Origin: Psammoneis japonica
Taxonomy: Eukaryota
Assembly: GCA_008632985.1 (NCBI GenBank)
Contig: QPGO01000026.1
Coordinates: forward strand, 62,001 to 126,000
Reading direction: 5' to 3'
Length of the DNA: 64,000 nt
The position numbers and the translations under genes were made by a program. Below are positions 21,915 through 48,144 of the stretch, piece after piece. Positions within the stretch are counted from its first letter, which is position 1. The number at the start of each line of letters is the position of its first letter. Below the pieces are notes generated by a model. That model had not been told where the DNA came from. It worked only from the letters and a program-made list of their open reading frames with translations, and made no database searches.

Positions 21915-22277
21915 ATTTCAGCAAATCTAAAACATGAACATGTACTTGAATACTGTTAGATCGTGTGTGCAAGGTTTGGTAGTTGTTATCATAAAAGTTA
22001 TAGCGCTACACGACGACGCGTCGGCGGCACTCGTCATGGTGTGCGATTTTTGTGATGTTTTGTGCAAGTGGTTTTCGAAAGGTCCCGTACGAAGGCCGGA
22101 CGGAACCGCGCTGAGCGAGGTCGCTTCTTAGATGAGAGTGCAACACGAACCGAGGGGAGTTTGATTTCGAGGCGAGTGGAGACGCAGTCGACACGAGACG
22201 AGAAATCAAACGACCCGAGGTGAGTGTACGAGTGTGGGAGAGACGATTCCGTTGAGCGGCGAGTGTAGATTACGCGA

Positions 22278-22899: not shown

Positions 22900-23451
22900 G
22901 TGTAAAACCAAAGGGCAAGTCACGAACGCAATCATGAAGAGCCACCGCGACCTACCTGGCGTTTGTGACAATATTCATATTTTCATGGCATTGCATCAAC
23001 GTATTCATATTTGGATGTTTTGCAATAACGCCGAACTTCCAACTCTTCATTCGCCCAACAATCGCTACCATCAGATCTGAAGATACAACATATGATCCAA
23101 GATTCGAACCCCGTGTGCGATGCTCAGTCTCGAATCCCGCGGAAGCCGAGTCACGAATGCGATGTTTGTTCCCAGCTTCGCGCTTGTTTAACTTCGCGTT
23201 TCTTTTAGATGGCAGCTGCATCTGCTCATAAAAACTGCTCATAATCTTTCTAACGTGCTGATTATCACCTCTCAACTTTTGGTGCAATAAAGTTACTGAT
23301 TGATTGTTGTGTCGCAATCACAGCTTTCAATCACTGAAAGTGCGCACGAATCCCAGAATTCCGGCCACTTTCCCACACGCTTCCTCTGCGAAATCTACAA
23401 GTTAAGTCAATCGATCTTAAGCTCTCGATTCTACTTTACTCTGCTGCTGCT

Positions 23452-24969: not shown

Positions 24970-25380
24970 CTGCTCCACAGGTTCACTCTGACACTGCTGC
25001 TGTCTTTACAGATGGCCATCACTGTGTCAGTGCTCCTGATGGCGGTCGCTGGCGTCATGAAATGTGCAGCACCGATCTGGATCATACTGCCATTCATGAT
25101 GCCATCCCTTCCTTCAGAAAAGTGTAAGCGCCTGTCACATGCCGTGATGACGCCAGGTGAGTGGGTTATCTCACACATCCTGGCTGAACTGGGCACAAGA
25201 CGAGTTAAGACTCACCAGCGACGGCCAACGACAAGGTGCTGCGCACGGTGTCACACGTCGACGAGGCCAGGTCACCGCTCCAGAGTGGCCACCAAGAAGG
25301 CTCACCATGTCATCACGTGATGCAAGACGGTTAGGGCGTACAATTCAACCACTCCATGCCGTCCCAATCAAACGGAACCC

Positions 25381-28300: not shown

Positions 28301-29231
28301 GAATTTTGACATTGATGATCAAGGCACTCTGGACGACTATCTCGGTGTCAATGTCGAGACGCTGCCTGACGGCAGAATGAAACTTGCCCAACCTCACCTT
28401 GTCAATCAGACACTGGAGATGGCCAACATTCCCAAGAGACCACCAGACAAGTCTGCTCCTGCTCCTTCTTTCAAGATCCTCCACAGGCACATGAGTGAGC
28501 CTGCTTTCCAAGGGAGCTTTCATTACCGATCCATCATCGGCAAGCTCAATTTTCTGGAGAAAAGCACTCGACCGGATGTCGCCTACGCGGTGCACCAAGT
28601 CGCACGTTTTTCCTCCGATCCCAAGATTTCTCACGGTGAAGCTGTACTATGGCTCTGTAAGTACCTAAGGTCAACCAGAACTGAAGGTATTATACTACAG
28701 CCCTCAACGGACAAGTCCCTTGAAGTTCACGCTAACGCGGACTTTGTGGGCAATTGGAACAAGCTAACAGCACCCGATGACGTTGGCACTTCCAAATCTC
28801 GAACTGGGTTTGTCATCACCTACGCAGGATGTCCGATTGTATGGACGTCCAAGCTACAGACTCAGATCGCGCTCAGCACTACTGAAGCTGAATTTATCGC
28901 TCTTTCGGAAAGTCTTCGAAGCGCCATCCCAATTATGAACCTCATTCAAGAGTTTATGGGTCATGGTCATAATGTCCCTTCCGAGACACCAGTCGTACAC
29001 TGTAAGGCTTTTGAAGACAATTCTGGAGCACTGGAGATCGCGAGATTGCCTAAGATGCGTCCTCGGACAAAACACTTCAACCTCACTCTCCACCACTTTA
29101 AAGACCATGTTCGCAAAGGTCTCATATCAATCCCACCAATTGATACGGCAGATCAGATTGCAGACATTTTCACCAAACCTCTACCACAGAACCTCTTCGT
29201 TAAACACAGGAAAGCGCTCCTTAAGTGGTAA
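25381..29231 (+). pseudogene. pol: Copia pol (protease, integrase, RT, RNase H) with a TGA at 26314 and a frameshift at ~26960
   Basis: DSDSFAIGVDS, WHCRLGH, DNGRF..QNGIAEK, HGQKQAGRAW, CVDDGI (from YVDD), STTEAEF, QIADIFTK. Confidence 0.95.
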
Positions 29232-30974
29232 GACGTTTTCGAGTCATCATTCCACCCGACGTTATTGAAGGGAGTGTGACAATATTCATATTTTCATGGC
29301 ATTGCATCAACGTATTCATATTTGGATGTTTTGCAATAACGCCGAACTTCCAACTCTTCATTCGCCCAACAATCGCTACCATCAGATCTGAAGATACAAC
29401 ATATGATCCAAGATTCAAACCCCGTGTGCGATGCTCAGTCTCGAATCCCGCGGAAGCCGAGTCACGAATGCGATGTTTGTTCCCAGCTTCGCGCTTGTTT
29501 AACTTCGCGTTTCTTTTAGATGGCAGCTGCATCTGCTCATAAAAACTGCTCATAATCTTTCTAACGTGCTGATTATCACCTCTCAACTTTTGGTACAATA
29601 AAGTTACTGATTGATTGTTGTGTCGCAATCACAGCTTTTAATCACTGAAAGTGCAGACGAATCCCAGAATTCCGGCTGCTTTCCCACAGCGTTTTGTCAT
29701 GCCTGATGGCGACGACGACGACAAGGACTCCACCACGGCAGCGACTGAAATGGCTTTCATCATGTCAAACTTTCTGGTCAATGCACGACCAAGGCAGGCA
29801 GGCGCCTTTTTTGTGAGAGCAGAATCACAACCCACATGATGCAAAAAGGATGCGAGTGGGAGCTTCCAAGAACACCAACGTGTCACTGCTCCATCCATGG
29901 CGCGTTGTCGGTTGTTGCTTGTGAAAAAAGTGCGGGATGCCACGTCATTCGTCACACCCAACATGGACAGACGGACGGCAGCGAACTGGGTCGGTCATGC
30001 CAGCCATTCTCGAGTTTCGTCAATTGACCAGTTGCCGATTCAGAGCAAGTTGCAGGTAAGACTTTTTGCAATGACAGAGGTTTTGCCTTTCAAATGCCAA
30101 GTGGTTGTGCTCTGGATCCAATGGCCAGGGAACGAGGAGGAAATGTGCTGGTGGGTCGGCGCGATTTGCTGAAGAAGAAGGTGCGCCAGAGTGACGTGGG
30201 CAAAGAAGGAGGGGGGCAGCAGAGGGAGGTGACAGGCATGGTCATGATGCAGTGGATGTTGGCTGGTTGATTGTGGAAATCTTTTGAAACAAAAAATGAG
30301 AAAGAGGGGCAATGGGTGAGCAGCAGCTGCTGAAATGTGGCAGCTCAAAGTCAAAAGGACAAAACACAAGGGAGCACCAGGGTGAGGACAAAAATGCATT
30401 GCACAGAAGACACAGCAGAAGGCACCTGCAGCAAACACAGCTTTTGCATCAGAAAAAACCAGTGCTGTGGCTGGCACAAACTGCAATTTTTGGAAAGTTT
30501 TGAGTGCCACAAGAGTTGTGCCGTGTCAAAAGGTGAAGTCAATTCACAAAGATTGTTGCATTGAAAGCAGTGTGAAATGAAGAGCAAGTGAGGGGCTCAC
30601 TGGGGTGAAAGAGAAGTCCCAGCTCTGCAACTTCCTTGACAGGATGAGCTGGTGAACACATGTTTTGCACCAGTGGACTCAATTTTGGCATCCAAGCAGC
30701 TGAGAAAAGCAATTTCAAGGTGCAACTTTGAGATGAAATGGTTGACTTTTTCAGGATTTTTCTTCACCCAGTTTGTGCTTTGACATGGGTGCCATGAACA
30801 ACAGGCAGGTGCCAACAAGCCACACACACTGGCTTGCTCTTGAAAGAGCTGCAGCCACAACCCAATGGAGCCACACAACAGCTCCCAGAAGCAGACCTCT
30901 TGCTTGAAACATGACCACTGCCAAGATGTGTTTGCACGCAAAGAACAAGAAAGCTCATTTCCACAGCTGCTTGC

Positions 30975-31287
30975 AAAGCTGGGTTCATGATGAGTGACAA
31001 AGGGGGCATGCTTCACACCAGCATGAGCAAAAAGTTGTTGGAGACAACTTGGGCTGGGATTTGTGTGCACATTGTTGAAAAAATGGAGCAGGAGCACCAA
31101 ATCAAAAGAGAGCAAGAAGGGTGATGCAACAAAGCTGGGTTCATGATGAGCAACAAAGGAGGCATGCTTCACACCAGCATGAGCAAAAAGTTGTTGGAGA
31201 CAACTTGGGCTGGGATTTGTGTGCACATTGTTGAAAAAATGGAGCAGGAGCACCAAATCAAAAGAGAGCAAGAAGGGTGATGCAAAG
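30975..31287 (+). repeat. Tandem duplication with a ~156-bp unit
   Basis: aaagctgggttcatgatgag...caagaagggtgatgcaa occurs twice in a row. Confidence 0.9.
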
Positions 31288-34200
31288 GCATGTGTGCTCC
31301 ACTGGGGGTGTGCAAAGCAGGACAGCTTGCTCCAGACCACACTGAGAGTTCACATTCAAGCCCATGGTTGTGTCACCTGCAAGGAGTGTGTGACACAAAG
31401 TGTCTTCCCATGCAGGGCAGTGCTGCTGCAGAAGCATCATCTGCAACATTTTGCACACAAGCTGGCCAATTTCAAGACCCATGAGTGTGTTGCCAGGGCA
31501 GATGACTGCCCCCTTAGCTTCCACCTGTGATGGAAGGTGGAGACACACCAGAGTCACAGCCCAATGATGAGCTGCACAACTTGCTTGAGTGTGGTGTATC
31601 AAGCACATGGCAGAAGCACATGGCACCACAGGACTTTGACCCATTGGCATGCACTGCAGCCAAAATGTGCTCCATCAGCCCTGGCTGGGACTCTGTGTGA
31701 CATTTGCGTGCAGAGTTCTGTGCATGAGCTTCACAGCAAAATCACCAGGTGGTGAACATGCCAGTTGTTGCCAACAGAAAAAGAGGCAGTTTTGTGATTG
31801 CATCTCTTCTTTCATTCTTGGGGTGCATTGTTTCCAGTTTGCCAGGGTGCACTCTTTGCAGACATCAAAGAATGGGCCCAGCTAATTTTTGCTTTCACAA
31901 ATGGGCACAATGAAAATCCTTTGGCTTCACAAAGCAGGGAGTGTGGGGAACAATTTTGTGGAATGATGCATGTGTAGAGATGCACAGTCCAGAGCTGGAG
32001 TTTGTCCCAAATTTGTTGCACTCTGCAAACAAGTCAAGCATGTCAAGGAAGGATGCAGAAGGCATTCTGGTCCAAAGCACCAAGGCTCCACACAAGCAGG
32101 GCTGCAGCCCAGACTCAATGAATCAGCACGGTGGTTGTGTCAAAGTGGGAGAGTTAATTGTGAGGCTGCAATTGTCCAAAAAGTGCAGTGCACCTGCTAA
32201 TTTTGTTCTGTTTTCAACTTTTTCAACAAGTGATGTTATCATGGTGAATCAATCACTGTGAATCTCTCTTGAAGGTTCAAGGCAACAGCTTTGCATTTTT
32301 GCCTCTTTTGTGTGCATCAGCTTCAACACAGCAGATGGGTGTCTGCATGTCATTTTGGTTGTTGCCTGCACTTGGAAACACTTCTTCCAGACACACACAT
32401 GGATGATGACAAATTTCCTTTTGAATCCTGTGTGCATTTGAATGCATCTTTGCACTGACCCAAACTTCAATGGACACTTGTGACTCCAATCTTTGGGAAT
32501 CCAGCAGTTTGAAAAGAATGATCTGGGGAATGTGTCTGGACAGCTGCTGTTCAAATGAATTCTGTCCATCTGTGCATTTGGGGCATCTGTGAGTGCAGCA
32601 GTTTCAAAGGATAAAAAAGATGCAAGGGCAGAGTCAAGCATGTGGCTCAAGGAAGTTAGACAAGGCTGACCAAGTCATGTGTGCACATCATTCCTCAAAA
32701 TAGATGAGAATTGGAGTGGCTTGCCAGGCTGTTGCTGATCCTTTCAACAATGCAAATGCCAGTGCCATCTGCCAGTCTTTTCCATCACATGGAAATGGCT
32801 TTTGTTGCTCATTTGAAGCTGGCCAGCCAGTTGCAAGATGAAAAAATGGATGTTGCATTGATGCCACAATTCAATGCTCATTTTTGCTCTCTGTCCCAAT
32901 CCAATTGCACTGCACTTTTGTTTTGGCATCTCACCCATTTTGTTTGACACACTTGTCTTTGTCACTTAGAGAGGACATTGAGCAATGTGTCACCCCCAAG
33001 GATGAACAATGGCTGACCATTTCATTTTGACATTCTTCATCGTGTTGGAAAGGGGCTGTGAGTGTGGCATGCCATGCACTCCTTTTTGGTCCAAACCAAG
33101 CAAGACACAATTGATGCTGTCACCAATGATGACAGTTTCAATGTGCAATGGGAGGGCATTGACATGTCCATGACCTTGCCAAGTGCCAGTTGGCAGTGCT
33201 CTCCCTCATTCAGGGGCCAAAAACTGGGGCAACTCTTGGTGACATGGCAAGCATGCAATTGGAGCATGTGAACAAGGAGGCTGAAATGTTGTGCGGACAA
33301 CTCTCAAGGCTGTGCCAAAGAAAGGCATGTTTGCATTGGTTCAAAGTGACATTGATGCATCACACATCTGCAGCATCTGTGTGTGACAAGCAAACCAGCA
33401 ATTTCTGCTCTCAATCTCTGTCTTTCCTGTCAAGGTGGTGTCTTGGTTTTTGTTTCTGGTGGCCTTTGGATCTGCAGAGAAGGACAGGAACAACTTGCAC
33501 CTCATCAAGCCAGGGTTGTCATCAGCTCACAATTTGTGGTGATGATGTGTCAGCGAGTTGCACAAACTGAAGACACACCTCACAACATGCCAGCACCCCA
33601 AGATGCACCTCTGCTCATTTTGTGTTTCCTCTGCAAGACAAACAAGAAACCCTGAGAACTTTTGTTGTTTTCAGCAAAGTCATTGATCTGTCATGGTCAA
33701 GCAGATTGTGGATAAAAACAAGCAACAACATTGATGGGAGTCAGTGCATCCATGGCAAGTGGAGCCAGACCAACACCTCCATTGTCATCTGATGTCAACT
33801 GTCTGACAGTGTGCTTTTGTGCAAACACTTCTCATGTTGCTCTCACTGCTTTCTTCTGATTCTTCTTGGTCATTCAATCCATGTTGAGTGGATGGAACAG
33901 GCTTGGATGGGGCACCACTGCTTGCATTGTGCATTGTCCATGGCGGCTTCAATGAAGCCAACCCATTTTGCACTTTCTGCTGACCACAATGCAGGGTGTC
34001 ACATGGCAACTCAACCAAAGCTTTGCCCAGACACGTGCAGCAGAAGAGATGATGACTGTGCAGGAGGTGACACCATTGTTCTTGTTTTTGATCTTTGTGA
34101 CATGAACTTTGGTTCCATCGACTGGGTCTTTCAGGTGAGAGCCATGTTTGGGATGCTTTTTCAGCTCACCACTCATTTTTTGTTGCAACAGCTTCATTGA

Positions 34201-35908
34201 CACCCCAGAGCTATGAACCCATTGACCAATTAGAGGCACTGACCCAATGCTCAACAAGAGACAATGTGCTGTGTGGTTTCATTATGCCATTGAATGCTTC
34301 TTGTGTCATGCACTGCTTTGGCACCATTTTAAAGAAAAAACTGCTGCACCTGATGCACAAGAAAAGCAGATTGGCTGCATGCAGGTCAATCACAAATGCC
34401 AATTGGGTGCAACAGATGTTGTCAGCAGCAAAAAGTGTTGGTGCTGGCATGCCATCATTGCACTGGCCAGCATTTTTTCCTGCGGTGTGGTGTGATGCAA
34501 CCTGGTCTCTGGCATTCCCACAATTCTTCTGAGTGCCCCAATCTCACTGATTGACAGACTGTTCCAGCACAAACCCCATTTTTTGTGCAAGATTGTTCAC
34601 ACAGCAGCTGTCCAGACATGTTCATCATAGAACCCCGCAAACATGTGGGGACCCACAACCTGGAAATGTGCAGAGTTGTGCGTGCATGCATTGGAGCTGT
34701 TTATGCAGGTTTTGCACCAGAGTGTGTTGTGAACTGCTGGCGGGCATTTTTTTTAAATTTTGTCATGGCAACAGAGACTCCAAACTCTCTGGTGCTTTGT
34801 TGGCCCCAGGCAGAAACAGCACCATGCCCTGTGCAATGTTCAGTCAATGAAACCAAAAAAAGTGCAAGAAGTGTGCCATGATTTTGAGGCCATTGCAATT
34901 GACACCACACCCGAGTTCACATTGAAAACAATGCTCAAGGGTGGCATCAAAATGTTCATCAAAAAAGGCTTGGTTGTGTGGGGAGGTTTCAGAGGTGCTG
35001 TGCAATGGTGCAGGTCAACATGGGCTCACAATCTGACAGAGACTCCAATGTGACCTCTTCCACTGACATGCAGAAACTGTGCCAGTTTTGTGCAGGCATG
35101 CTGAGTGTTTCAGCACCACATGCAAAAATGAGCATGGACCTCTGCAGGAGGGTCCCCACACATTTGCAGGGTGACACAATGAACAAGTCATGATTGCAAT
35201 GTCATCTGGTTGCAGAACATGACTGCAACTCAGACTCATTGATTCATTTGGCCATTCACTGAAATCGCTGTTTGTGGATTGCAATTGACTTTTGCCACAA
35301 TTTCTGGAACAGCAGCAACAACAACAACAACAACAACAACAACAACCACTGTTTTGCCTCTTTGTTGTTGCTGCCATCCACCCTTTGAGGGGACTTTTGA
35401 TTGTGTGTCAACCTCAGCACAGTCTTTCAACTCTGATTGTTGAGACCATCAATTCATGCATTGGCACTAAGCTCTCAGTCAAGTTGTTGCCACAGACATT
35501 TCCTCTGATGGAAACACAGCTGATTTCAAATCACCCATCCCATTTTCACAACCAAGAGAACCGTGGCTCCTCCTGCCACACCACCACCTCCTCCAAGAAC
35601 CCTGGCAATGGGCACTGCACCAAATGTCAGGTTGAAGGAGGAGGAATTCATGAAGATTTTCTCCAGCATCAGAACCCAGGGACAATCACCTCCAACACCA
35701 CCCAAATGAGGCAGAATCCCTTGAACTCATGGTGCACATGTTGGAAGATCTCTCCTTGATGATGACTGGAAGCAGACAGATTCACATGCACATCGTTTTG
35801 CATCACAGCATTGACACCCCAAGGCTCTCAATTCAACCAAGTGCTCTCTCCAAGATCAACAAGCTTCTGCAATGACCTCCAAACAACTTCAACAGCAGAC
35901 TCAAGATT

Positions 35909-36650
35909 TTGAATGGTCCCATCAACAAATTAGACAAGGACCACTTTGTCAAGAGCATCCAAGACCCAGTGGAGGCTCACAGACATGAGATGTTCTGTCA
36001 TGCAAAGAAATCAGACAGAAAGGTCATCCATGTCTTTGATCATCTACACAAGTTTTTGGCAACAGATCTCCCTGCTGAGAGCGACACTTGCAAGTTGGAC
36101 ATTGATGACTCAGCCTGCAACAAGACAGAGCTCCATGACATTGGCCTTTCTCAGCTTCCAGTTTTACATGGAGTCACAAATGCCTTTGGCAAGAAAATGA
36201 AGACCAAGTTCAACCACTTGAAGGATTTCAAGAACTGTCCTGAATCCGTTCTGTTCATGATGGCACTCAACACATGCAACACCAGTGCTCCAGCTGACAT
36301 TGAGACTGCCAAGAAGGAGCTGGAGGATCTTGCTTTGGCCACCTGCCTGGGAGAAGACTGTGCCAACTTCACTGCTGAAGGTCTGTGGATCATCAAGGTC
36401 CTGCAGATGGACTGCACACTCCCAGTCAATGCTGGATCCAAGCTCTTGCACAAGGCATCCAATGCATCTTTGGAACACTTCAATCGCCTTGTGCACAACA
36501 AGATTGATGATGTCAAGAAGATGGAGTGCAAGTGTGGGCTCAAGGACCCCATGGAAATCAAGTCCAATGCTGCCTGTGCCAACCTGGGCCAACTTGGCAT
36601 CATCACATGGATCCAAAAGCAGCACTCCCTCAGAGCAACCTGTCATCATC
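35909..36650 (+). pseudogene. Decayed diatom copia gag-like fragment
   Basis: VLFMMALNTCN..DIETAKKELEDL.LATCLGEDC..F...LPVNAGSKLL resembles CoDi gag (YPGE->CLGE). No Tyr. Confidence 0.6.
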
Positions 36651-37852
36651 TGACAACCCAACCAACATGTTGTTGGGGATGTGGTCTTGAAGGCTGCACC
36701 AAAAATCCCAAACACCCCAAGAAGTCATGTGCAACTGCATGGCAAACTGCCTGCATTGGGGAGACCACTGCCAAGGACCCAAGTTGCTTGAAGTTTCAGC
36801 GGGGGAGTCTGACAGGACTGTTGTTGATGGTGTTGAAGAAGGCCCATCACTCCATGTTGATGAAGGAATGTCCCATGGAAGAGCACTTGGTGCACCCACT
36901 GGCACACCACTGGGAACCACTGATGGTGAGAGGGAAGGTCTCTCAGATGGTGAAACAGACGGTGCATCACTGGGGCTGGCAGCACTCAGCATCAAAAAGA
37001 CAATGTCTCTGACGGACTGGTGCTGGGGACACACGTTGGGCCTTCACTTGGCATTTAAATGGCAGAATCACTGGGGTTGAAACTCAGCATCAAAGATGGC
37101 ATCTCTGATGGATGAGTGCTGGGGACACCCATTGGAGATCTTCACTTGGCATCAAAGAGGGAGAATCAGCTGGCATGACACTTGGCTCTGTTGTTGGTGA
37201 CACCAGTTGGATCTTCACTTGGCATTGCAGAGGGAGAATCTGATGGCATTGCACTTGGCACATCTGTTGGGGCTTCACTGGGTGGGACTGAAAGTTTTTG
37301 TGATGGCACATCACTGGGCACCAATGATGGCGCACCCAATGGCACAATGCTTGGGCTGGCACACTTGTTGGAGCATCACTGGGAGCATCACTGGGAACTG
37401 ATGAAGGACTTTCTGATGGTGCAGCACCGGGTGCAAAGGATGGCGCAGCAGACGGCACAACACTCAGCATGTTTGCTGGAGATTTGCTGGGTGACAAACA
37501 GGGCTCATCACTGGGGCTGCCACTTGGCACCAATGATGGTGTCTCAGATGGTGCAACACTTGGCACATTCATTGGTGCCTCACTGGGTGATGATGATGGT
37601 TCATCGCTTGGGCTGCCACTTGGCATTGATGATGGCATCTCAGATGGCTCAAGGCTTGGTGCTTGCATTTGGCATCGCAGAGGGTGAATCAGATGGCACA
37701 AGACTTGGCACATCTGTTGGAGCTTTGCTGGGAACCAATGAAGGAGTTTCTGATGGCACAATGCCAGGTGTCAAGGATGGTGCAGTGGACGGCACAACAC
37801 TTGACATGTCTGTTGGAGATTTGCTGCTGGGCAACAAACAAGTGCAACACAC
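36630..37852 (-). pseudogene. Fragmented mucin-like (PSxx)n repeat gene remnant
   Basis: PSDAPSVSPSERPSLSPS and PSEMPSSMPSGSPSDEPS broken across several frames. Confidence 0.65.
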
Positions 37853-38487
37853 AAAATGATGAAAACAAAGAAAGAACGATCTTATGTTGATGCAAACGCT
37901 CTTGTTGCTACAACAACCAACATGACTAACACAGATGATGATGCTGCCATTAGAAGGTCTGCCAAAGACAAATCACTTGAAACTCAGCTTCGTTGTGCCG
38001 ACCTGGCACAAGTCACCCGTCAACAGCAAGCCATTTTGAGAGATGCTGGGCAAATTCTTGACGATGGAAACAGCACTGCGTGTGACTTGAAAAAGGCCAG
38101 CAACAGTTTGAAAATTGTCAGTGAAACACTTTCTATTGTTGAAAAAGCTGCTGCTGAATAAAATGCAACAGTTGCTAAAGAATCCAAGACAACGGGCGTT
38201 CCGTACGTTCATCGAAGGCTCGCGGCTTCGGGGAAAGTCGCCCAATCCTGAGCAATCATTGATTGGAGCCATGTCACTGGCTCTCATCATTGGACAAACT
38301 CACTTTGTTGTCGGACACGACAGACATGTCCCCAAAGCTTGGAGAGGGTTCAGAGCTCTTTCTTCAACTTGTTGAGCAGGCATGGGGAGTTGAGGTGCAC
38401 CCTGTTAAACCCATGTACATCATGGGAGAGTGTTCATTCTGTCTGCCTCTGGGCTTGAGATCATGGTGCACCTCACTCTCAAGGTTT

Positions 38488-39360
38488 TCACAGTGTCTTT
38501 TGTTTCTTGGCAGATGCAACAGTTTCAGGACTTAGGTGTTCTTCATTCCTTTCGAAAGCATCAAGCAACTTGTGAACATGTTTGCAGTTGACACCCAGAA
38601 AGTATGCTGGCTGCTGCTTCGCAACATCCAAGGGAGTTTCAGCAAAATGCGATTCATGCAGTGGATCTATGTTCTCCTGTCTGAGCAAGAAATCTGCGCT
38701 TTCCACTTTACCCGCAAGTGTGGCAAGGTGCAGAGGCATCTCTCCATCGAAGTCAACTGCGCTTACATCTGCACCATTTTCTATGAGTGTTCGCATTGCT
38801 CCAATGCTGCCAGCACTGGCAGCAAGGTGAAGGGGTGTCTGACCTGAGGTCCCTTGCATTTGTGAGCTGTTTTGCTTCAACCACGGACACTGCTTGAGAA
38901 CATGCTGGATGGCCTCTTTGTCATCAAGACATGCAGCGTTTCGGAGCACAGGTCCTGCACCAGCTGAGCGGAGCTTCTTTGTAATTTGCTGGCCCAACTT
39001 CGATTCCGAATCCATTTTCGACATTTGATCCTGAAATTCCTCACTGAAACACTTTGCCGTCTCAACATCCAAGTTAACCAGATCCTTGGCAAAGTCAATG
39101 TCGAACAGCCCAAACTCCCAGCTTCCGACAGAGAATGGATGAACCAAGGAGATCACTCCAGTTTCACACACAATGTCAATCGACTTGTTTCCGGCAATGG
39201 AATTCTTTAAATCAAGCAGAGGCCCGCCTTGCATCTTTCCTGAATAGACTGTGCACTCACAATCTTCCATCTGCTCTTCCCAGTGTTTCGGGTCAGAGCA
39301 ATGATCTTGCTGGAGCCTCATCGACAATGGATGTGTCAAAAGAGGGGCTGTGTCAGGCAT
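38488..39360 (-). pseudogene. Ankyrin-repeat protein, 5'-truncated by the copia fragment
   Basis: GQTPLHLAASAG...GADVSAVDFDGEMPLHLA...ETPLDVA. Abuts copia sequence at ~39360. Confidence 0.75.
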
Positions 39361-39361
39361 T

Positions 39362-40918
39362 GTTCACACTCTCCCCAACCATCCCATCCTGTCTATGTTG
39401 CTGCAGACGAAGCATGCGCGACATGGCACAAGGCTCGGTTTGGCATCGATTTGGACAGGAGCATGGCACTTCCGATGCAACATGCACTTCAAGGACACCC
39501 AGAAGCCGGCGTGCTCTGGGAGACGCACATCAACGGCATTTTGTCCGATGTGAACTTACTTTTTCGCAACACTGCTCATGACAAATGCATCTGTTCTGCT
39601 GCTTGTGAAGGACACAAGATCTTGCTCCTCCGTCAGGTTGATGATTTCTCCATTGCATGTCCTGAAGAGTCCCTTGCGATCAAGACCTGCGACAAGATTG
39701 GCAAAGCTCTCCAATTGGAATCGGAGACTTCTCCACCTTTCAAGTGTCTTGGCGTGATTGAAGAATTCAATGGTGTGGATGTTCTTCAATGTGATGATTC
39801 CATTGGTGTTGCTGTCCACAGTTGTGTTGATCGGGTTTGCACCTTGCATGGATGGTCGACACCGACAGACGAGGAACTCAAAGAGATGAACACAAGGCCA
39901 CACCAATCCCGGTTGATTCCATTTGTGACCTGCACACTGCCATTGGTCCAGCTGAAGGAACCCCAGAGCATGCGGAGTTGCAACAAGCTGCTGGCTTTGG
40001 GTGCCGCACTCTACTTGGTGAATTGTTGCATGCGTGCATTGTCTGTCGATTGGATGTTGGGTGTGCTGTCACTGCTCTCTCCAAGTTCTCTACCTGTCCT
40101 GCTGTGGTTCACTGTGACGCGCTCAAAGGAGTCTGCAAGTGCCTTCAACGCACCAAGCATTGGGAATTGAACTGCAAGAAGCCCACCCAAGACTCAAGAC
40201 TGCCTGCCTGCCCCTTTGAACGCCTCTCTCCGGACCCAACCCTACCACCATTCCCTTTCCCTGAATGTGATCATCAACTCGTTGCTTTCTTGGATGCTGC
40301 GCATGGCAATGACCTCCGCAACCGTTGCTCTACGACCGGCTGTGCTTGCATGTTTGCTGGCGCTGCCATGTCTTTTTGATGCAAGACCCAATTGGTGCTG
40401 CTGCGAGTTCTACGGAAGCTGAATTCTGTGCGGCTGGCACTGCTGCCAAGCATGTCCTTTGCCTTTGTCACATCCTGTGTGACCTGGGCTTCCCTCAGAC
40501 GAAGCCAACCCCGTTGTGCATTGACAACAAATTGGTATCAAGATCATCAATCATTCGATCCCAACCGAGCACTCCCGTCACATTGAGACTCAGTTTTTTG
40601 CGATCCAAGAATGGAAGGAAGCGGGCAAGATTGTCACAAGACATGTCCCTGGCATTGTCAACCCCAGCAATGACCTCACCAAGGCCCTTGGGTGGGTGCC
40701 ACACGCTCGCCATGCTCAACGCATGATGGGACACTGCTGTTGACATTTTTTCTGCGGTGGCCTCCCTGCTGCGCATTGCCCCCTTGTTTGATTGTGCATT
40801 GGGCATGGACACTTGTCGTGTCCTGTGTCTAGTCTCTCTGTTTTTCCTCACATCATCCCTGTTCTTTGGTTTGATGTGCACCATTCTCTGTGTTGAGATG
40901 TTGCAAATCAGGGGAGGG
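39362..40918 (+). mobile_element. Partial duplicate of the copia RT/RNase H 3' region (copy of ~46390-47948)
   Basis: Near-identical sequence including the PPT ggggaggg, running directly into the LTR at 40919. Confidence 0.92.
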
Positions 40919-43900
40919 TGTCAGCCCATCTATCTGCCTGTCATATGATGGACAGACTGGATGCGGATGATGGCCAGACCATTTGGACAGACGAGCAGAT
41001 CTCTCTGAGATCTGCTTTTCACTTTCTCATCTACTGGCACTCGTGTCATCACAGTCCTAGCCCTTTGGGGAGTCTTTCACACCTCTGTCATCTCTTGCCT
41101 TCGGCATTCTGTCAGGCCATGGCCTTGCGCTGTGCCACAGACCTCTGCGCCAAGCTTTCCATTTTGATTCGTTTGTTTTGTGAGCCGATCGAGCGAGCCT
41201 CATCGTCTGATCCGACAACTTTTTGTCTCGCTTTCCCGGCATTTTTCACGACCGTAGAAACATGCCAGATTTCCACGCGTGCATGACCAAAAATGGCTCA
41301 ACCAACTAAAACCATGGCGTCTTCCGACCCCACAAAACCCGCTCTCCCGTCCATTGCAGAGATCTGCTACGAATTCGAGGCACATGCAACAATGCCACAT
41401 CTACATGACTGCCTGAGTACGATTTGTGCAGACTCCACAACTGATCTCGACCAATTTTTTGACGATCCAGAGCATGCGCAACCCAAGAAAGATTTCGCGG
41501 ACATGCTTCGTGATTGCTTCATCAACAAAGCATTTCCAGCACCCCACACAGCTGATCCTACGGATGTACAATCAATCAAGACAATTGTGGATCAAGCCCC
41601 ATTCCGGCTTCTTGACTCTCAAAGGCCTTGTCCAGTCCGTTTGACGACTCCGATCTTGTCAAAGATGATCAAGACGAATCTTCAGAACCACGAGCAATCT
41701 CTGTTCATTCTCATTTCCACGCAACATGTGTGTGTTGATCTGGACATGGTGTGGAACTGTCGCAATTGGAACAAATTCTCTCTCACACCCTGCCAGCAGA
41801 AACAGCAACCTCCATCTCCTTCTCTGAAAACTTCAGGACCTGCCACATTGACTGTGAATGACTTGGTCAATGCACTCAATGCATGCGTGTCGAGCCACGC
41901 TCCGCCCTCTACAGCTCCTGCCAAGCCGACTGGAAGTGCTGCATCTTCCGTAACATCAAAATACCTCTTCAATCTGAACACACTACCCAAAGATGTTTGT
42001 GCACGCTACGACCGCAAAGAAGACGGAAAAGTCACACTCCAGAGCTCTCTCGTCCCTTGTGACCATGGATTCCATCACTGTGTTGATGCATCTGATCGCA
42101 TCGTCCTTGACGATGGCACCCTTTTCATCATGAGCTCGACTCCTGACCAGAAAATGCTGTTCAGGGAACCTCCTGTATGTCATGACGACTCTCCCCCTGG
42201 GATGCGAGCATGGCACCAAAATTTCCAACGTCATGTCTTTGATTCAGGATGCCACACACATCCATTGTGGTGTTTTGCCAAGGACCACGGTGGTGAGAAG
42301 GGTTTCAAGATCGGAAACTGCAAGGATGATGACTTACCTCAATGTGTGTACGTCCACTGCAAGGAAGCTCAGAGCTCTCTCCACAAGATGCTGTCCAAAT
42401 CGGACATGTTCCCCAAGAATGGCAAATGTCATCGGATTGTTGCATCATGCTGCGGCAACGGATGCAAGGCTCTCAAGCAGATTGTCTACGAGAATCATCC
42501 TGCTTTCGACCACAATGCTGCTGGACTAGTTGATTCACATCCCACCCAAGGCAATCAATCATTGACGGACCATCACATGATTTTCAATGATTTCCTGCAG
42601 CTGCGTGCTTGCATCTTTGATGCGGATTCTACATTGGATGATCCACAAGAGATGACTGTCTTTGTCAAGAATGCCAAGCACTCCAAGTTCTTATCTTGTG
42701 CTGCCAGAGATGAACGGAAGTCTCCAGCTGTGCTCAAGAAGTGCACTGATGCACAGATTGTCAAGACTCTCTCTGATTTCCTCCGCCAACTGGATGGCCC
42801 ATCCCTTGCCACTCGTGCGACGCCATCCAATCCCCACCGTAAATGGAATCGAGCAAATGAGGACACGCGATGCATGACTGTTGTTGATGTCAATGCTCTC
42901 CAGGTCCCTGAGATCCCTCCACTTGAACCAGTCGATGACTCTACCGCTGAAGACACTGGTGCGGAATCTCCACCTTCGGATGCCTTTGATGCTTTTTGCG
43001 ACGAGCTGCATGAACTCGAGTTCCCTTCTACGGACAAAGATCAACTCCTTCATCATGTCTGCTCGGCTTCAGTTTACAAACTGAAAGTTGCTCCGAATGA
43101 AGCTTCCAAGAAACCATGTCTCGTCTGCCCCGGAGAGCACTCATTTGATGACTGTCCTGTCTTGAGGAATGACCCATACATCAAGGGATTCCATGTCCGC
43201 TTTTGTCAATTCTTGAAGAGGGAAGCAGCTGTGCGTGCTTCTGAGTTCCAAGGACCCCAAGGACTGCTCCCCCCTCATGATAAAAACCCTGAAAGTTTGA
43301 CTGAATCTGGTGCTCCGCCCTCGGATTTTCAATTGGGCCGTCGCAGCTAGTTTCGGATCTCCGACACTGCCCGTTTTCTCCTCACCGAGACAAGACTCAT
43401 GTTGGCGGGATGACTTTGAAAGAGGGACTCACTGTCTCATCATCTGCCACTACAATGCCTCTTTCTTCGCAGATTGATGTCAACACCACCCCTGCCACTG
43501 CCACGAAGGTGTCATTGGATGCTAGCAAGTTGCCCAATGATGACCCTGCTCCTCAAGAAGACACCGTCGATGATGCTCCTGCTCCGGATCCTTTGGAACA
43601 GGGGAGGGAAGACCCAGAAACATCAGATTTTGAGGAACACATTGACCTTGCCTACGATGACATGGCTGTTGAGAAGATGGTTTTGCTGCTGTCAATTCTG
43701 TTTGTGTTGCTCCGATCGATCCATGCCAAGCCACCCATTCTCCTGAGCTAGAATTGCTGTGCTCCACTGGTTCTGTCAATGGAGTCAATTTCACTCCGAA
43801 TGAGCATTGTGCTCAGTTGGATGCTGGTGCTGACATTGCGTGTGCAGGCGACCGTGACCTCCTTCATCGATGCCAAGAATTCACTCCGTCCCATCCATGT

Positions 43901-46900
43901 CCTCTTGCCGTCAACCCGGCTCTTGGCCATCAAGCTGTCCCAGTTGGATTCGGATGTCTTCGCATTCCTGCAGAGAACTCCGCTGGCTATGTTGAGGTTC
44001 GTGCATGCCACCACCCACAGATCCAATCTATGTTGGTCGATGAGCGACTCCTCCTTTGTCAAAATGGCACTCATCGTGCAGATTACAACGTTGATTGTGT
44101 GCTCAAGTTCCATGATCTTGGTGCCTGCAAGTTTGTAGCACGACACCGATTGTGCAAGAATCAGGACATCATCATTCATGGGAAATTGATCAAGGGAAAA
44201 TGCTTTGCTCACCCTCTCATCCTCCCGGAATCTAATGAGGAATTGGGTGCATCTGTCGCGTGCCTCAAGACTGGCGACCCTTCCTTTGCGATGAGTGTGA
44301 AGCGGTCTCTGCGCACATGATTGAAACATGTCGCACCCACCAACATGAAGCTCTTCGTGCTGAACGCAAGTTGATCCCTCGAGTGCATCAAGACATTCCT
44401 TTTGAAGATCATGCCAAGAAGAACATTCCTGTCCAGTCTCTCAAGGCCGACATGGAACGCCTTTTATGGCATCAGCGACTTGGTCATCCGAGTGATCACT
44501 GCCTTTGTCATGCACATGAACACGTTGACGGTGTTCCCAAGTTTGCCCACGGAACTTCTCCTCTCGACACTTGTCCTGCATGCATGCAAGCAAAGCAGAT
44601 GAAGGAACCTGCTGGTCCGAACACCACTCTCACTGCCACCCAACCCCACCAAGGCCTTGCGGTTGACTTTTCTTTCTCTGGACTATGATCCAAGAACTCA
44701 GAGCATGCCAAGGACCATGTTGGATTGAATGGCGAGACTTGTTGGATCACCATTTATGATCATAAAACAAAGCATCTCCATGGTGCGACTCGAGTCTCCA
44801 AGGCAACCCCTTTGAATTGGCTTCACCACTTTCTGGAAGAGCACTCGCCAAAATGTCCAGACAAACATGCATTTGTGGACCAAGGAGGTGAATTGTGTCA
44901 AAATCCAGAGGTTTGGCGACTTTTCGAGAATGACTTTCACTGTGCAATTTGTCCCACAGGAAAAGATGCTTCAAACCAGAGTGGCCCAGTGGAACGCAGT
45001 CATTTGACTGTTGCCAATGCCATCCGGGCGATGCTCATTGGTGCCGATTTGCCCATGAAATTGTGGCCCTGTGCTTTTCATCATTTCATTCGAATCAACA
45101 ACGCCACACCATCCCGCGGGCAAACTGCTGTTCCGATTGCTCTTGCCACTGGTCGAAAGGATGATTTCAAGAACTTTTGTACATTTGGTTGTCGAGTTTG
45201 GGTGCGTGCTTCGAACCATCGCCCAGCAAAATTTCGGTCTGTCTCTCGCAAGGGTATTTTCTTGGGACATCTCCCGGACACTGCCAAGAACACACTCTGG
45301 TGTGATGCCGAGACCTCGCGTGTCAAGCTTGCCAAGCACATTCGTTTTGATGAGGGAATGAACGATCTCCCCCGCGACTCCCTTCCTCCGAATGTGGTTC
45401 ACTTGGAGCGCACTCAAGATGGCAAGGCTCTACCTGCCGAGACTGAAGAATCTATGTTAGATGAGTTTCACTTCCATGGGAAACCTTTTGCCAAGACCAT
45501 TGCGCGTGCGATGAAGGGGCCATTTCCTGATCCGACGTTTGGAATTTCCATGACTGTGGATGATCTCTATGAGTGTGTCTTCGTCTCTGACATTAAACGT
45601 GGTTCTCCTGCTGCGCATCTTTTCTCTTCTTTGAAGGCAACCCGCAACAAGCTCAAGGGTGTGTGTGTGTTGTGTTGATCGATGATCACCCTGTCTTCAC
45701 GGCAGAGGAGGCTGTCAAATGTTTTCAACAGATCTGTGATTCTGGCAAGACTCATTTTGAAATCGAATTCGCGCCGGAACGTCGACTGGATTCCCAGGCT
45801 CTACAACGTGCTCTGATGGAACACAATGTCCATGCACCAACTCCTGATCCTGATGATGAGCATGTCCCGGAAATTGCCAATGCCAACATGCGCGCCATTG
45901 CCGCCATCCGTCACCCTGACATTGATTTTTCCGACATGGACGATGATGACGTCCCTCTGTCGTTCTATGTTGACTGTGACAATGGTGTGGTCAACATCTG
46001 TGCTATTTCATCTCATGCAATTGCTCCAGAGGAACAAGCGTCAGGCACTTTCACTCGCCATTGTCTCAAGAAGTTGGACACGTGGCCCGAATGGCATGCG
46101 GGTGAACTCAAACAACTTGATCAATTCCATGAGCTGGGGATGTTTGGTGCACCAATTGAACATCCCAAGGATGCCATTGTCCTTCGTCTGCATTGGCAAT
46201 GTGATCTCAAGCATGATGGTGCACGACGATCTCGACAATGCTGCGATGGATCTCCCCGTGCTGCGTCGACCCTACATCGTCTTCACTCGACCTGCTCCTC
46301 TTGTGTGGAACAACCCATCCAATGCATGTTCTTTGCCCTTGCTGCAACTGTGAGCTGCCCTGTCTTTGGTGGTGATGCCCGTGATGCATGTGCACACTCT
46401 CCCCAACTGTCCCATCCTGTCTATGTTGCTGCAGACGAAGCATGCGCGACATGGCACAAGGCTCGGTTTGGCATCGATTTGGACAGGAGCATGGCACTTC
46501 CGATGCAACATGCACTTCAAGGACACCCAGAAGCCGGCGTGCTCTGGGAGACGCACATCAACGGCATTTTGTCAGATGTGAACTTACTTTTTTGCAACAC
46601 TGCTCATGACAAATGCATCTGTTCTGCTGCTTGTGAAGGACACAAGATCTTGCTCCTCTGTCAGGTTGATGATTTCTCCATTGCATGTCCTGAAGAGTCC
46701 CTTGCGATCAAGACCTGCGACAAGATTGGCAAAGCTCTCCAACTGGAATTGGAGACTTCTCCACCTTTCAAGTGTCTTGGCGTGATTGAAGAATTCAATG
46801 GTGTGGATGTTCATCAATGTGATGATTCCATTGGTGTTGCTGTCCACAGTTGTGTTGATTGGGTTTGCACCTCGCATGGATGGTCGACACCGACAGACGA

Positions 46901-48144
46901 GGAACTCAAAGAGATGAACACAAGGCCACACCAATCCCGGTTGATTCCATTTGTGACCTGCACACTGCCATTGGTCCAGCTGAAGGAACCCTGGAGCATG
47001 CGGAGTTGCAACAGGCTGCTGGCTTTGGGTGCCGCACTCCACTTGGTGAATTGTTGCATGCGTGCATTGTCTGTCGATTGGATGTTGGGTGTGCTGTCAC
47101 TGCTCTCTCCAAGTTCTCTACCTGTCCTGCTGTGGTTCACTGTGACGCGCTCAAAGGAGTCTGCAAGTGCCTTCGACGCACCAAGCATTGGGAATTGAAC
47201 TGCAAGAAGCCCACCCAAGACTCAAGACTGCCTGCCTGCCCCTTTGAACACCTCTCTCCGGACCCAACCCTACCACCATTCCCTTTCCCTGAATGTGATC
47301 ATCAACTCGTTGCTTTCTTGGATGCTGCGCATGGCAATGACCTCCGCAACCGTTGCTCTACGACCGGCTGTGCTTGCATGTTTGCTGGCGCTGCCATGTC
47401 TTTTCGATGCAAGACCCAATCGGTGACTGCTGCGAGTTCTACGGAAGCTGAATTCTGTGCGGCTGGCACTGCTGCCAAGCATGTCCTTTGCCTTTGTCAC
47501 ATCCTGTGTGACCTGGGCTTCCCTCAGACGAAGCCAACCCCGTTGTGCATTGACAACGAATCGGCGATCAAGATCATCAATCATTCGATCCCAACCAAGC
47601 ACTCCCGTCACATTGAGATTCAGTTTTTTGCGATCCAAGAATGGAAGGAAGCGGGCAAGATTGTCACAAGACATGTCCCTGGCATTGTCAACCCCAGCGA
47701 TGACCTCACCAAGGCCCTTGGGTGGGTGCCACACGCTCGCCACGCTCAACGCATGATGGGACACTGCTGTTGACATTTTTTCTGCGGTGGCCTCCCTGCT
47801 GCGCATTGCCCCCTTGTTTGATTGCGCATTGGGCATGGACACTTGTCGTGTCCTGTGTCTAGTCTCTCTGTTTTTCCTCACATCATCCCTGTTCTTTGGT
47901 TTGATCTGCACCATTCTCTGTGTTGAGATGTTGCAAATCAGGGGAGGGTGTCAGCCCATCTGTCCACCTGTCATATGATGGACAGACTGGATGCAGATGA
48001 TGGCTGGACCATTTAGATAGACGAGCAGATCGCTCTGAGATCTGCTTCTCACTTTCTCATCTGCCAGCACTCGTGTCATCACAGTCCTGGCACCCCAGGG
48101 AGTCTTTCACACCTCTGTCATCTCTTGCCTTCGGCATTCTGTCA
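40919..48144 (+). mobile_element. Second Ty1/copia element (different family), inactivated
   Basis: 196-bp LTRs at 40919-41114 and 47949-48144 (TG...CA). gag 41293-43350, protease QLDAGA, WHQRLGH, integrase DQGGE..GPVER, RT ALQGHPEAG/QVDDF, RNase H STEAEF/NPSDDLTK. Confidence 0.95.

Follow-up and report, generated by a model that had tools for sequence, protein, structure and literature searches.

Our analysis of 64,000 nucleotides of the Psammoneis japonica genome (the window) indicates that it probably contains a dead copia retrotransposon lying within a repeat compartment in which both CpG and TpA have been erased by transitions with the genes spared, and that the long terminal repeats (LTRs) of this element show the late tail of that process. 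The original prediction, made from the LTR pair, was that TA is lost in genomic DNA after insertion and independently in each copy. The process is real, the observation behind the prediction was partly confirmed and its interpretation is partly supported.

Profiles of dinucleotide composition in 1-kb steps were bimodal, with observed/expected (o/e) ratios in genes of 0.4-0.8 for TA and about 1 for CG and in repeats of 0.01-0.2 for TA, 0.02-0.5 for CG and 1.6-2.1 for TG/CA. TA and CG o/e values were strongly correlated (Spearman 0.84, 128 windows of 500 bp), TA o/e was below 0.25 in 65% of these 500-bp windows and approximately 65% of the whole window was depleted in both dinucleotides while host genes were spared. 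The GC content of the affected DNA is about 0.46-0.50. Borders are sharp, with zero TA in 48174-48730 and in 29639-30057, and TA depletion extends around 500 bp beyond the 3' LTR of the retrotransposon under study (element 1) and also fills stretches without retroelement homology. The affected DNA includes a second retrotransposon (element 2) and the stretch that follows it:

22964..29688, + strand: element 2, a younger Ty1/copia element with 414-bp LTRs at 22964-23377 and 29275-29688 (RVT_2 E 8.6e-25)
29689..38000, no strand: most depleted stretch of the window, no protein family recognised

Element 2 is flanked by a 5-bp target-site duplication, GCGTT (22959-22963 and 29689-29693), and within 30001-38000 the o/e ratios are 0.05 for TA, 0.10 for CG and about 1.9 for TG/CA. 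Twelve ORFs from the other depleted stretches had no Pfam family match with the E cut-off relaxed to 1 (a PT-repeat and sub-threshold matches only) and no homologue was found for ORF 59360-61153, so that these stretches are not demonstrable as transposons. Their long ORFs are probably artefacts of lost TAA and TAG stops.

Element 1 (39357-48144) is a dead diatom Ty1/copia (CoDi-like) retrotransposon consisting of a 5'-truncated pol, an LTR, an internal region and a second LTR, with the following features:

39357..40918, + strand: copy A, 5'-truncated 3' end of pol (C-terminal part of the reverse transcriptase and RNase H), from self-BLAST and tblastn of copia homologues
40910..40918, + strand: polypurine tract AGGGGAGGG before the middle LTR, read directly, with the same at 47940-47948
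40919..41114, + strand: middle LTR (the 5' LTR of the original prediction), 196 bp, TG...CA ends, 4 TA and 4 CG
41115..47948, + strand: internal region of the degenerate Ty1/copia element, TA o/e 0.14, CG o/e 0.65
41287-43350, + strand: 687-aa ORF with no Pfam family, in the internal region
44239-44688, + strand: gag_pre-integrase (gag_pre-integrs), in the internal region
44689-45678, + strand: integrase SH3-like domain (SH3_retrovirus), in the internal region
45597-47198, + strand: RVT_2, in the internal region
about 46916-47764, + strand: RNase H, in the internal region
47949..48144, + strand: 3' LTR, 196 bp, 3 TA and 4 CG

The domain order is that of Ty1/copia, with the integrase before an RVT_2-type reverse transcriptase, and the direct LTRs with TG...CA ends and the polypurine tract lying immediately 5' of each LTR copy, including the 3' LTR, are likewise Ty1/copia features. 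The best named homologues are diatom proteins. The internal region is broken by several frameshifts and, at 44686-44688, by an in-frame stop, and its RVT_2 domain scores only E 1e-5, but despite these dead genes the family is highly repeated, with 3,844 contig pieces of run X1 aligning at 80% or more; runs X2 and X3 provided no coverage, which is uninformative. Self-BLAST reveals a 1,760-bp direct repeat (39357-41114 against 46386-48144; 97.2% identity, 47 mismatches, 3 gaps) of which the LTR pair forms only the end (196 bp), and it is because the first 1,562 bp of this repeat are pol coding sequence that the layout is read as above. Copy A is accordingly the duplicate of 46386-47948 (copy B), its RVT_2 match falling on ORF 39244-40170. 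This arrangement would most likely have arisen through an unequal exchange of LTRs and a later deletion on the 5' side.

The two LTRs of element 1 differ at 21 of 196 positions (~11%). As predicted, the middle LTR has TA at 40931, 41032 and 41058 where the 3' LTR has TG, and conversely the TG (40984) and CA (40988) of the middle LTR correspond to TA in the 3' LTR (48014 and 48018). Sites reading TG in one copy and CA in the other are also present, although these doublets number four (40935-6, 40975-6, 41035-6 and 41066-7) and not the three predicted, and two further doublets lie in the repeat adjoining the LTR. Five of the nine single transitions interconvert TA and TG/CA, a change open to 23% of positions (binomial p 0.03). 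Element 2 LTRs differ at 7 positions (TG/TA at 23284, CA/TA at 23328 and CG/CA at 23106, with in addition a complex change covering 23344-5 and one TG/CA doublet, 23366-7), and pooling both pairs gives 7 TA-interconverting transitions of 13 (p 0.012), which without polarity is only a modest excess. A metagenome scan for other family copies with a 20-base LTR word returned one chance match (L001), unrelated outside the word. Among the family contig pieces the single paralogous fragment listed at the 41032 site reads TG where the middle LTR (copy 1) has TA, and 41018, the sole LTR position among the 40 variant sites listed of 1,524, is C in the family.

The prediction took the LTRs to have been identical at insertion, a premise that is unsafe in this element. 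No target-site duplication was found in the five bases on each side (GAGGG before 40919, AGAAG after 48144), which follows from the shared middle LTR and the truncated arrangement, and the divergence of the LTRs is some six times that of the 1,562 bp of pol duplicated next to them (~1.7%). Without a target-site duplication the LTRs may derive from two family members and need not have matched, and in a family this abundant two members could have been joined by ectopic recombination, in which case the 21 differences would mix lineage differences with changes made in place. The shared middle LTR, the truncated upstream copy and the contrast in divergence would all suit such a history; however unequal sister-chromatid exchange within a single old insertion yields the same structure and the same contrast, and the clean LTR pair of element 2, which has its target-site duplication, shows the same classes of difference. 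We therefore regard a recombinant origin as somewhat unlikely, and the independent origin of the differences in two lineages holds either way. Judging from rates and composition, the five unpolarised TA versus TG/CA differences most likely represent chromosomal TA losses that followed the separation of the LTRs.

The polarity of the change, TA to TG/CA, is strongly supported by the conserved tyrosine columns of pol. Element 1 keeps the conserved Tyr in 0 of 16 columns, which now hold 13 TGY Cys, 2 CAY His and 1 Phe, compared with 288 of 338 other conserved columns (Fisher p 4e-13), and no Tyr was gained at columns with a non-Tyr consensus. Copy A keeps 0 of 15. Element 2 keeps Tyr in 3 of 9 columns (the others being 3 Cys, 1 His and 2 Phe) and other residues in 235 of 259 (p 8e-5), with two Ile-to-Thr (now ACA) and one Val-to-Ala (now GCA) replacements in addition. 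TGY or CAY codons thus stand at 15 of the 16 lost Tyr codons of element 1 and at 4 of 6 in element 2. The pol strings held to carry this signature (DACAHS, FKCLG, GCRT.LGELLHAC, DVGCAV and TTGC) were all recovered in the translation, and tblastn alignment gives their homologue counterparts as DAYAHS, FKYLG, NYRTLLGELLYAY, DIGYAV and TMGY/TTGF. As a host control we utilized the Grx-DEP-DUF547 gene, whose named relatives are all diatoms (best 60-61% identity); it keeps Tyr at all 8 Tyr columns, Arg at all 16 Arg columns and, counting every column, 197 of 208. The predicted direction therefore holds, as opposed to a gain of TA of the kind produced by repeat-induced point mutation (RIP).

It could still be argued that no TA-specific process is at work and that CpG decay with ordinary transitions, or a RIP-like TA gain, is sufficient, given that CpG decay is the commonest recent change, that doublets are CpG-derived and that the unpolarised LTR excess of TA-interconverting changes reaches only p 0.03. 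We consider this very improbable in view of the Tyr columns, of a TA o/e of 0.02-0.08 in repeats against 0.4-0.8 in genes and of the stops in the window, where TAA (277) and TAG (219) are few beside TGA (1,460). A RIP-like process raises TA and here TA is erased, and the Tyr columns of both elements together with the host gene refute the polarity that a gain of TA would require. An assembly or base-calling artefact, in which modified TA sites of repeats would have been miscalled as TG or CA, is hardly credible. The depletion does coincide with the probably methylated compartment, and strand-dependent miscalls could in principle yield TG/CA doublets between copies, but host genes on the same contig keep both TA and Tyr, the two polarisable doublets go back to Pro CCG and not to TA, and 503 k-mer contig pieces of run X1, a run that may be the assembly's own source, are at least 99% alike to the sequence examined.

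CpG decay, which the original prediction did not include, is the commonest change to have followed the duplication: of the 26 differences between the copies of the 1.56-kb duplicate, 15 are single CG/TG or CG/CA changes and one is TA/CA. It is reciprocal, with CG in copy A only at 7 sites and in copy B only at 10, and is polarised by the Arg, Ser, Asp and Pro columns of homologues. One of two doublets that could be polarised illustrates this:

46407..46409, + strand: TG/CA doublet, CTG in copy B against CCA in copy A (39379-39381), homologues Pro 108/115

As the homologues have Pro here the ancestor was CCG and the CpG decayed on opposite strands in the two copies. The second polarisable doublet (homologues Pro 33/76) also has CCG as its ancestor, and the earlier reading of doublets as TA lost on both strands fails at both. 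Because two of the two testable doublets next door proved CpG-derived, we read the four LTR doublets in the same way, as CpG decayed on different strands in the two LTRs. With doublets counted as CpG the loss per site and per copy is 0.71 for TA and 0.60 for CG in the element 1 LTRs, 0.07 and 0.17 in the internal duplicate and 0.06 and 0.09 in the element 2 LTRs; taking the element 1 LTR doublets as TA instead gives 0.87 TA and 0.14 CG, out of line with the other two pairs. Diatom transposons are reported to be CpG-methylated, and CpG decay of methylated transposons explains TG/CA doublets that are reciprocal between copies, but such decay can account neither for the removal of TA nor for the change of Tyr codons from TAY to TGY or CAY. 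CpG loss may be a second process independent of TpA loss.

With regard to timing, outgroups polarise a TA loss after the duplication at one site (47040):

47039..47041, + strand: CCA codon in copy B, CTA in copy A (40011-40013), Leu in 48 and Val in 25 of 79 homologues

The homologues are mostly Leu at this codon, which places a TA-to-CA loss in copy B after the duplication. All 15 lost Tyr codons of the duplicated part are identical in copies A and B, and most coding-region TA loss in element 1 is older than the duplication. In element 2 Tyr codons have lost TA at 4 of 9 as against 2 of 36 per copy in the LTRs (p 0.01), so that its TA loss mostly predates insertion or prefers the internal region. 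On the strength of these two comparisons most of the loss cannot be placed after insertion. As it is largely older than the duplication, and in element 2 exceeds the LTR record, the LTR pair is the tail of the process and records only a small, late part of TA loss. Changes private to this copy relative to the family comprise 12 CG to TG/CA, 2 TA to TG/CA and 1 CA to TA among the 40 variant sites listed of 1,524. The claim that TA is lost in genomic DNA after insertion is supported by the loss at 47040, with reciprocal though unpolarised LTR differences and depleted flanks alongside it, but has against it the greater part of the loss, which is shared between copies or precedes insertion.

A large inherited share would be expected if an adenosine deaminase acted on the RNA or single-stranded cDNA of the element before integration, most TA loss then being present at insertion. 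The identical Tyr losses of the two copies and the excess of internal over LTR loss in element 2 point this way, as does the multiplication of a family whose genes are dead, and the sense-strand excess of Tyr-to-Cys over Tyr-to-His (16 against 3 in both elements, p 0.004) would also fit editing of RNA or of a single-stranded intermediate. However RNA editing cannot make two LTRs differ, since a single template serves for U3 and likewise for U5, whereas both LTR pairs carry reciprocal TA/TG and TA/CA differences. Moreover the loss at 47040 postdates a duplication at the DNA level, the depletion runs past the 3' LTR and into stretches without retroelement homology, and the chlorarachniophyte Bigelowiella natans is reported to show the same spectrum in resident chromosomal DNA. 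The Cys excess can also be met by sequence context, as the sense strand reads TAY at every Tyr codon and a preference for T-A-pyrimidine would favour Cys. On balance we judge editing before integration to be unlikely and prefer loss from resident DNA. Context supports such a preference in that a pyrimidine precedes 189 of 244 surviving TAs in depleted DNA (326 of 739 in genic DNA) and TAs followed by a purine survive best. Tyr-to-His replacements occur only after a purine (3 of 10 such sites) and all 9 of 9 after a pyrimidine are Tyr-to-Cys, consistent with the context explanation but not significant (p 0.21); it was on this weak test that a pure strand bias for Cys over His was set aside for a 3'-pyrimidine context.

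Known systems that place clustered transitions of one kind in retroelement copies include APOBEC3, acting on cDNA, and ADAR, acting on double-stranded RNA, but their edits precede integration and leave the LTRs alike, and in the window non-retroelement flanks are depleted too. ADAR is a metazoan enzyme that favours G after the edited A, whereas the TAs before a purine are those that survive best here. It also favours U before the edited A (bioRxiv 10.64898/2026.01.13.699255). Fungal RIP resembles the present case in its one-dinucleotide transitions confined to repeats, its killing of transposon genes and its division of the genome into mutated and unmutated compartments. RIP is described as changing C to T, mostly CpA to TpA, so that TA is created and GC lowered (PMC2621366); here the polarity is reversed, with TA erased and GC at the level given above.

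The closest parallel is B. natans, for which the preprint of a mutation-accumulation experiment counts 231 new mutations across two viral regions integrated in the genome, of which 230 were A-to-G or T-to-C changes, every one at a TpA (Mettrop et al., bioRxiv 10.64898/2026.01.13.699255). The same preprint describes this spectrum as arising in integrated foreign DNA at an elevated rate measured in mutation-accumulation lines, names an ADAT2-like deaminase as candidate and notes that reverse-transcriptase and DDE domains are over-represented in coding sequences poor in TpA (bioRxiv 10.64898/2026.01.13.699255). As reported there, the two cases share TpA to TpG/CpA changes that hit foreign or mobile DNA and leave host genes unaffected (here within this one window), and long-term TpA depletion with gain of CpA and TpG, reverse transcriptase being among the TpA-poor coding sequences. 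They differ in host (a chlorarachniophyte there, a diatom and hence a stramenopile here), in target (giant-virus and virophage inserts there, LTR retrotransposons and unidentified repeats here) and in extent (124 small clusters and a Rho of 0.45 in the NCLDV insert, as compared with near saturation, at a TA o/e of 0.02-0.15, over ~65% of the window). Mutation was seen live in B. natans, whereas here it is deduced from sequence alone. The strong CpG loss that coincides with TpA loss in P. japonica has no mention in the preprint's abstract, Results or Discussion, and the almost exclusive A/T to G/C spectrum does not apply here, where changes of CpG to TpG/CpA in the affected DNA are no rarer than those at TpA. 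Our literature searches yielded no description of diatom repeats losing TpA specifically.

The mechanism we propose is that two self-complementary dinucleotides are erased by transitions in the repeat compartment, CpG going to TpG/CpA, as would be expected for methylated transposons, and TpA likewise going to TpG/CpA, an A:T to G:C change restricted to TpA. The chemistry of the latter is likely to be a site-specific deamination of adenine on DNA, with T-A-pyrimidine preferred, by a putative enzyme that would be aimed at silenced or repeated DNA. A wider reading, which we put forward tentatively as a possibility falling just short of probable, is that diatoms like the rhizarian Bigelowiella have a chromosomal, enzyme-driven adenine-to-guanine hypermutation at T-A-pyrimidine that targets the same silenced DNA as cytosine methylation and is saturated over most repeats in this species.

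The first description of a mutational genome defence acting by A:T to G:C at TpA dates from 2026 and concerns a single alga. A saturated signature in diatom retrotransposons would show that the process is not confined to one lineage and, with a family of thousands of copies, would open a much larger natural data set on context, timing and targeting. On the wider reading Tyr codons and TAA/TAG stops would be erased and a heterochromatin with TG/CA only would be left. As TAA and TAG are gone such repeats mimic long open reading frames, their transposon proteins evade domain searches, as illustrated by the weak RVT_2 match of element 1, and the parallel loss of TA and CpG biases consensus-based dating and polarisation of LTR elements. 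Whether cytosine methylation and TpA hypermutation share their targeting is now a testable question. If one silencing pathway does direct both CpG and TpA decay, it would constitute a RIP-like genome defence of opposite polarity found across the SAR supergroup, and a defence common to that supergroup would be old.

The window divides into genes and spacers, with a TA observed/expected ratio (o/e) of 0.4-0.8 and a CG o/e of about 1 in the window profile, and a remainder in which TA falls to 0.01-0.2 and CG to 0.02-0.5 while TG/CA rises to 1.6-2.1. The borders between these compartments are sharp. In 500-bp windows (128 in all) TA and CG o/e are correlated, with a Spearman coefficient of 0.84, and TA o/e lies below 0.25 in 65% of the windows. 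Stop triplets number 277 TAA and 219 TAG against 1,460 TGA and, because TAA and TAG are nearly gone, the depleted DNA holds many long stop-free frames on both strands that lack Tyr and contain 5-8% each of Cys and His, for example:

12731-13672, stop-free frame
35876-37009, stop-free frame
59360-61153, stop-free frame

No family or homologue was found for the long ORFs searched from those stretches, and gene finders would predict false genes in such DNA. Within the most depleted DNA lie a tandem duplicate of 156 bp and some older repeats (30974-31285; 37207-37826; 1881-2072 and 14684-14867), whose differences include many doublets, TG in one copy and CA in the other, with 6 of them within 108 bp at 37.4 and 37.7 kb. 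Independent decay of CG or TA sites in each copy would be expected to give this pattern. A perfect 108-bp inverted repeat pair (18771-18878 and 22007-22114) encloses about 3.1 kb with ORFs that match no known family. This DNA shows no TA or CG depletion, and the unit may represent a young DNA transposon, or an inverted duplication, that hypermutation has yet to reach.

The original prediction treated the repeat of element 1, a degenerate copia retrotransposon, as an LTR pair and so misread its anatomy, the LTRs being only the final 196 bp of a direct repeat of 1,760 bp (97.2% identity, 47 mismatches, 3 gaps).

39357-41114 and 46386-48144, 1,760-bp direct repeat, from window self-comparison
40919-41114 and 47949-48144, 196-bp LTRs of element 1 (the LTR1 pair), starting TG and ending CA

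The polypurine tract AGGGGAGGG lies directly 5' of each LTR. The first 1,562 bp of the repeat are coding, with an RVT_2 match in both the upstream copy A and the internal copy B, and both pol copies align with the C-terminal reverse transcriptase (RT) and RNase H portions of copia polyproteins. Between the LTRs are domains in copia order (gag_pre-integrase, integrase SH3-like domain, RVT_2), within an internal region carrying several frameshifts and one in-frame stop, and the locus thus has the layout 5'-truncated pol, LTR, internal region, LTR. No target-site duplication is present at the LTR1 pair (outer 5 bases GAGGG vs AGAAG). Unequal exchange between LTRs with a 5' deletion most likely produced this layout; recombination between two family members may have done so instead. 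The family is highly abundant, with 3,844 contig pieces from one public run matching the stretch at no less than 80% identity, and among named proteins the RT is closest to those of diatoms (Cylindrotheca, Nitzschia, Fragilaria). Where copy A is truncated, at 39357, it adjoins an ankyrin-repeat ORF (38488-39363, minus strand, Ank E 8.5e-13) that lies in depleted DNA (TA o/e 0.17) and may be a piece of a host gene that ended up in the mutated compartment. Beyond the 3' LTR, TA and CG depletion extends for around 500-600 bp (48145-48730), reflecting either an older repeat remnant or spread of the process into flanking DNA, and ends at the promoter of the following gene:

48899-50362, pseudouridine synthase ORF

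In order to polarise the TA changes we used protein homologues as an outgroup. In element 1, aligned by tblastn with 120 RT homologues, none of the 16 conserved Tyr columns is kept (13 TGY Cys, 2 CAY His, 1 Phe) compared with 288 of 338 non-Tyr columns (Fisher p 4e-13), and no Tyr is gained at non-Tyr-consensus positions among the 354 conserved columns. A MAFFT-based count gave the same picture, and truncated copy A keeps 0 of 15 Tyr columns. Arg is lost at 10 of 29 columns (Cys 6, His 2, Trp 1, Gln 1), the mark of CpG decay. Diatom transposons are CpG-methylated. As a control we utilized a host gene whose named matches are diatom relatives only, at no more than 61% identity:

4836-6410, minus strand, Grx-DEP-DUF547 host gene

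Together with the RT relatives, these matches identify the host as a diatom and rule out Bigelowiella. The gene keeps Tyr at 8/8, Arg at 16/16 and 197 of 208 columns overall. The coding-region consensus therefore carries Tyr and not TG/CA, in agreement with the predicted loss rather than gain of TA, and judged from these columns the change runs from TA to TG/CA, the opposite of fungal repeat-induced point mutation (RIP).

Direct reading of both LTRs bore out every TA site named previously and gave four doublets in place of three. The LTR1 pair (196 bp) differs by 4 TA/TG, 1 TA/CA, 4 doublets, 1 CG/CA, 3 other transitions and 2 transversions, and the adjoining duplicate (1,561 aligned bases) by 10 CG/TG, 5 CG/CA, 2 doublets, 1 TA/CA, 3 other transitions and 5 transversions, making LTR1 approximately 6 times more diverged. 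CpG decay, unremarked in the original prediction, is the main recent change in the duplicate. TA-interconverting changes, counted without polarity, show a modest excess: they account for 5 of 9 single transitions in LTR1, against the 23% of positions that could yield one (p 0.03). Adding LTR2, the LTR pair of the younger element 2, brings the figure to 7 of 13 (p 0.012).

Each difference in the duplicated pol segment was polarised by its homologue columns. Both doublets fall at Pro columns (108/115 and 33/76 homologues), copy A having CCA and copy B CTG, which makes the ancestor CCG and the doublets former CpG rather than TA sites, decayed on opposite strands; CG is reciprocally kept solely in copy A at 7 sites and solely in copy B at 10. 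The sole TA/CA difference (40012 CTA, 47040 CCA) falls where homologues have Leu (48/79) or Val (25), and 47040 in copy B is a TA to CA loss later than the duplication. Copies A and B share all of their Tyr-codon losses in the duplicated part, which are hence older than the duplication.

With doublets taken as CpG, per-site per-copy losses of TA and CG are 0.71 and 0.60 in LTR1, 0.07 and 0.17 in the internal duplicate and 0.06 and 0.09 in LTR2. Taking the LTR1 doublets as TA instead gives 0.87 and 0.14, inconsistent with the other two pairs. Judged by these rates rather than by an outgroup, the five LTR1 singles are probably TA losses and the four doublets CpG. The only paralogous fragment among listed contigs has TG at the 41032 site, and a family consensus would be a biased reference given fast and parallel loss. 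Sites where all other contigs disagree with the element 1 copy (40 listed of 1,524 variant sites) comprised 12 CG to TG/CA, 2 TA to TG/CA, 1 CA to TA, 2 doublets, 2 CG kept by the element 1 copy and 19 others. Set against the 57 TA, 278 CG and 1,315 TG+CA of element 1, these 40 sites give an indication only that TA is lost per site at a rate similar in magnitude to that of CpG decay, and tens of times faster than the change runs in reverse. Doublets also separate the element 1 copy from the rest of its family, since at 43403-43404 and 43792-43793, among the sites listed, all other family contigs carry the opposite doublet.

Element 2 offers a cleaner test.

22964-29688, element 2, younger intact-looking copia element, its 414-bp LTRs differing at 7 positions, target-site duplication GCGTT

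Its LTR differences fall into classes like those of LTR1 (TG/TA at 23284, CA/TA at 23328, CG/CA at 23106, a complex change and one doublet). Scored against its own set of 150 homologues it keeps 3 of 9 conserved Tyr (3 Cys, 1 His, 2 Phe) vs 235 of 259 other columns (p 8e-5), with two Ile columns now ACA and one Val column now GCA. TA loss at Tyr codons (4/9) far exceeds that in the LTRs (2/36 per copy, p 0.01), and o/e is likewise lower in the interior than in the LTRs for both TA (0.24 vs 0.5) and CG (0.71 vs 1.2), so that either much of the TA loss preceded insertion or the internal region is more strongly affected. Loss before insertion would mean that mutated copies were mobilised in trans or that an intermediate was edited. 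The upstream flank is normal (TA o/e 0.82, CG 1.53) and the downstream flank has 1 TA in 912 bp, placing the insertion exactly at the border of normal and depleted DNA.

Tyr to Cys changes outnumber Tyr to His by 16 to 3 (p 0.004). The excess could reflect a sense-strand process and also fits a T-A-pyrimidine preference, given that a Tyr codon always reads TAY on the sense strand. In each of the three His cases the codon follows a purine, making the antisense context TAY as well, and all 9 Tyr sites with a preceding pyrimidine became Cys, the association of base and outcome having p 0.21. Among surviving TAs a pyrimidine precedes 189 of 244 in depleted DNA vs 326 of 739 in genic DNA. ADAR favours a G 3' of the edited A, and TadA and ADAT act on the A that follows U33.

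The TA to TG/CA loss is thus real, directional and probably at least partly chromosomal. The predicted timing, loss in the chromosome after insertion and independently in each copy, holds in part through the change at 47040, but most of the loss is not datable to after insertion, given the Tyr losses shared by both copies and the excess in the element 2 interior. A 2026 preprint on mutation accumulation in Bigelowiella natans reports 231 new mutations across two integrated viral regions, of which 230 were A-to-G or T-to-C changes, every one at TpA. The mutation rate in those regions was raised about 1,000-fold, the mutations appeared in some lines only, and TpA-poor coding sequences were enriched for reverse transcriptase and DDE domains; its authors propose an ADAT2-like DNA adenine deaminase (bioRxiv 10.64898/2026.01.13.699255). 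These results directly support, in a different lineage, the predicted loss of TA from chromosomal DNA. In contrast with the system described there, the present case has a diatom host and LTR retrotransposons as targets, depletion is near saturation and CpG decay coincides, on which the preprint's Results and Discussion are silent. We found no literature report of TpA-specific loss in diatoms, and the case adds a diatom member to a type of hypermutation that was first reported in 2026.
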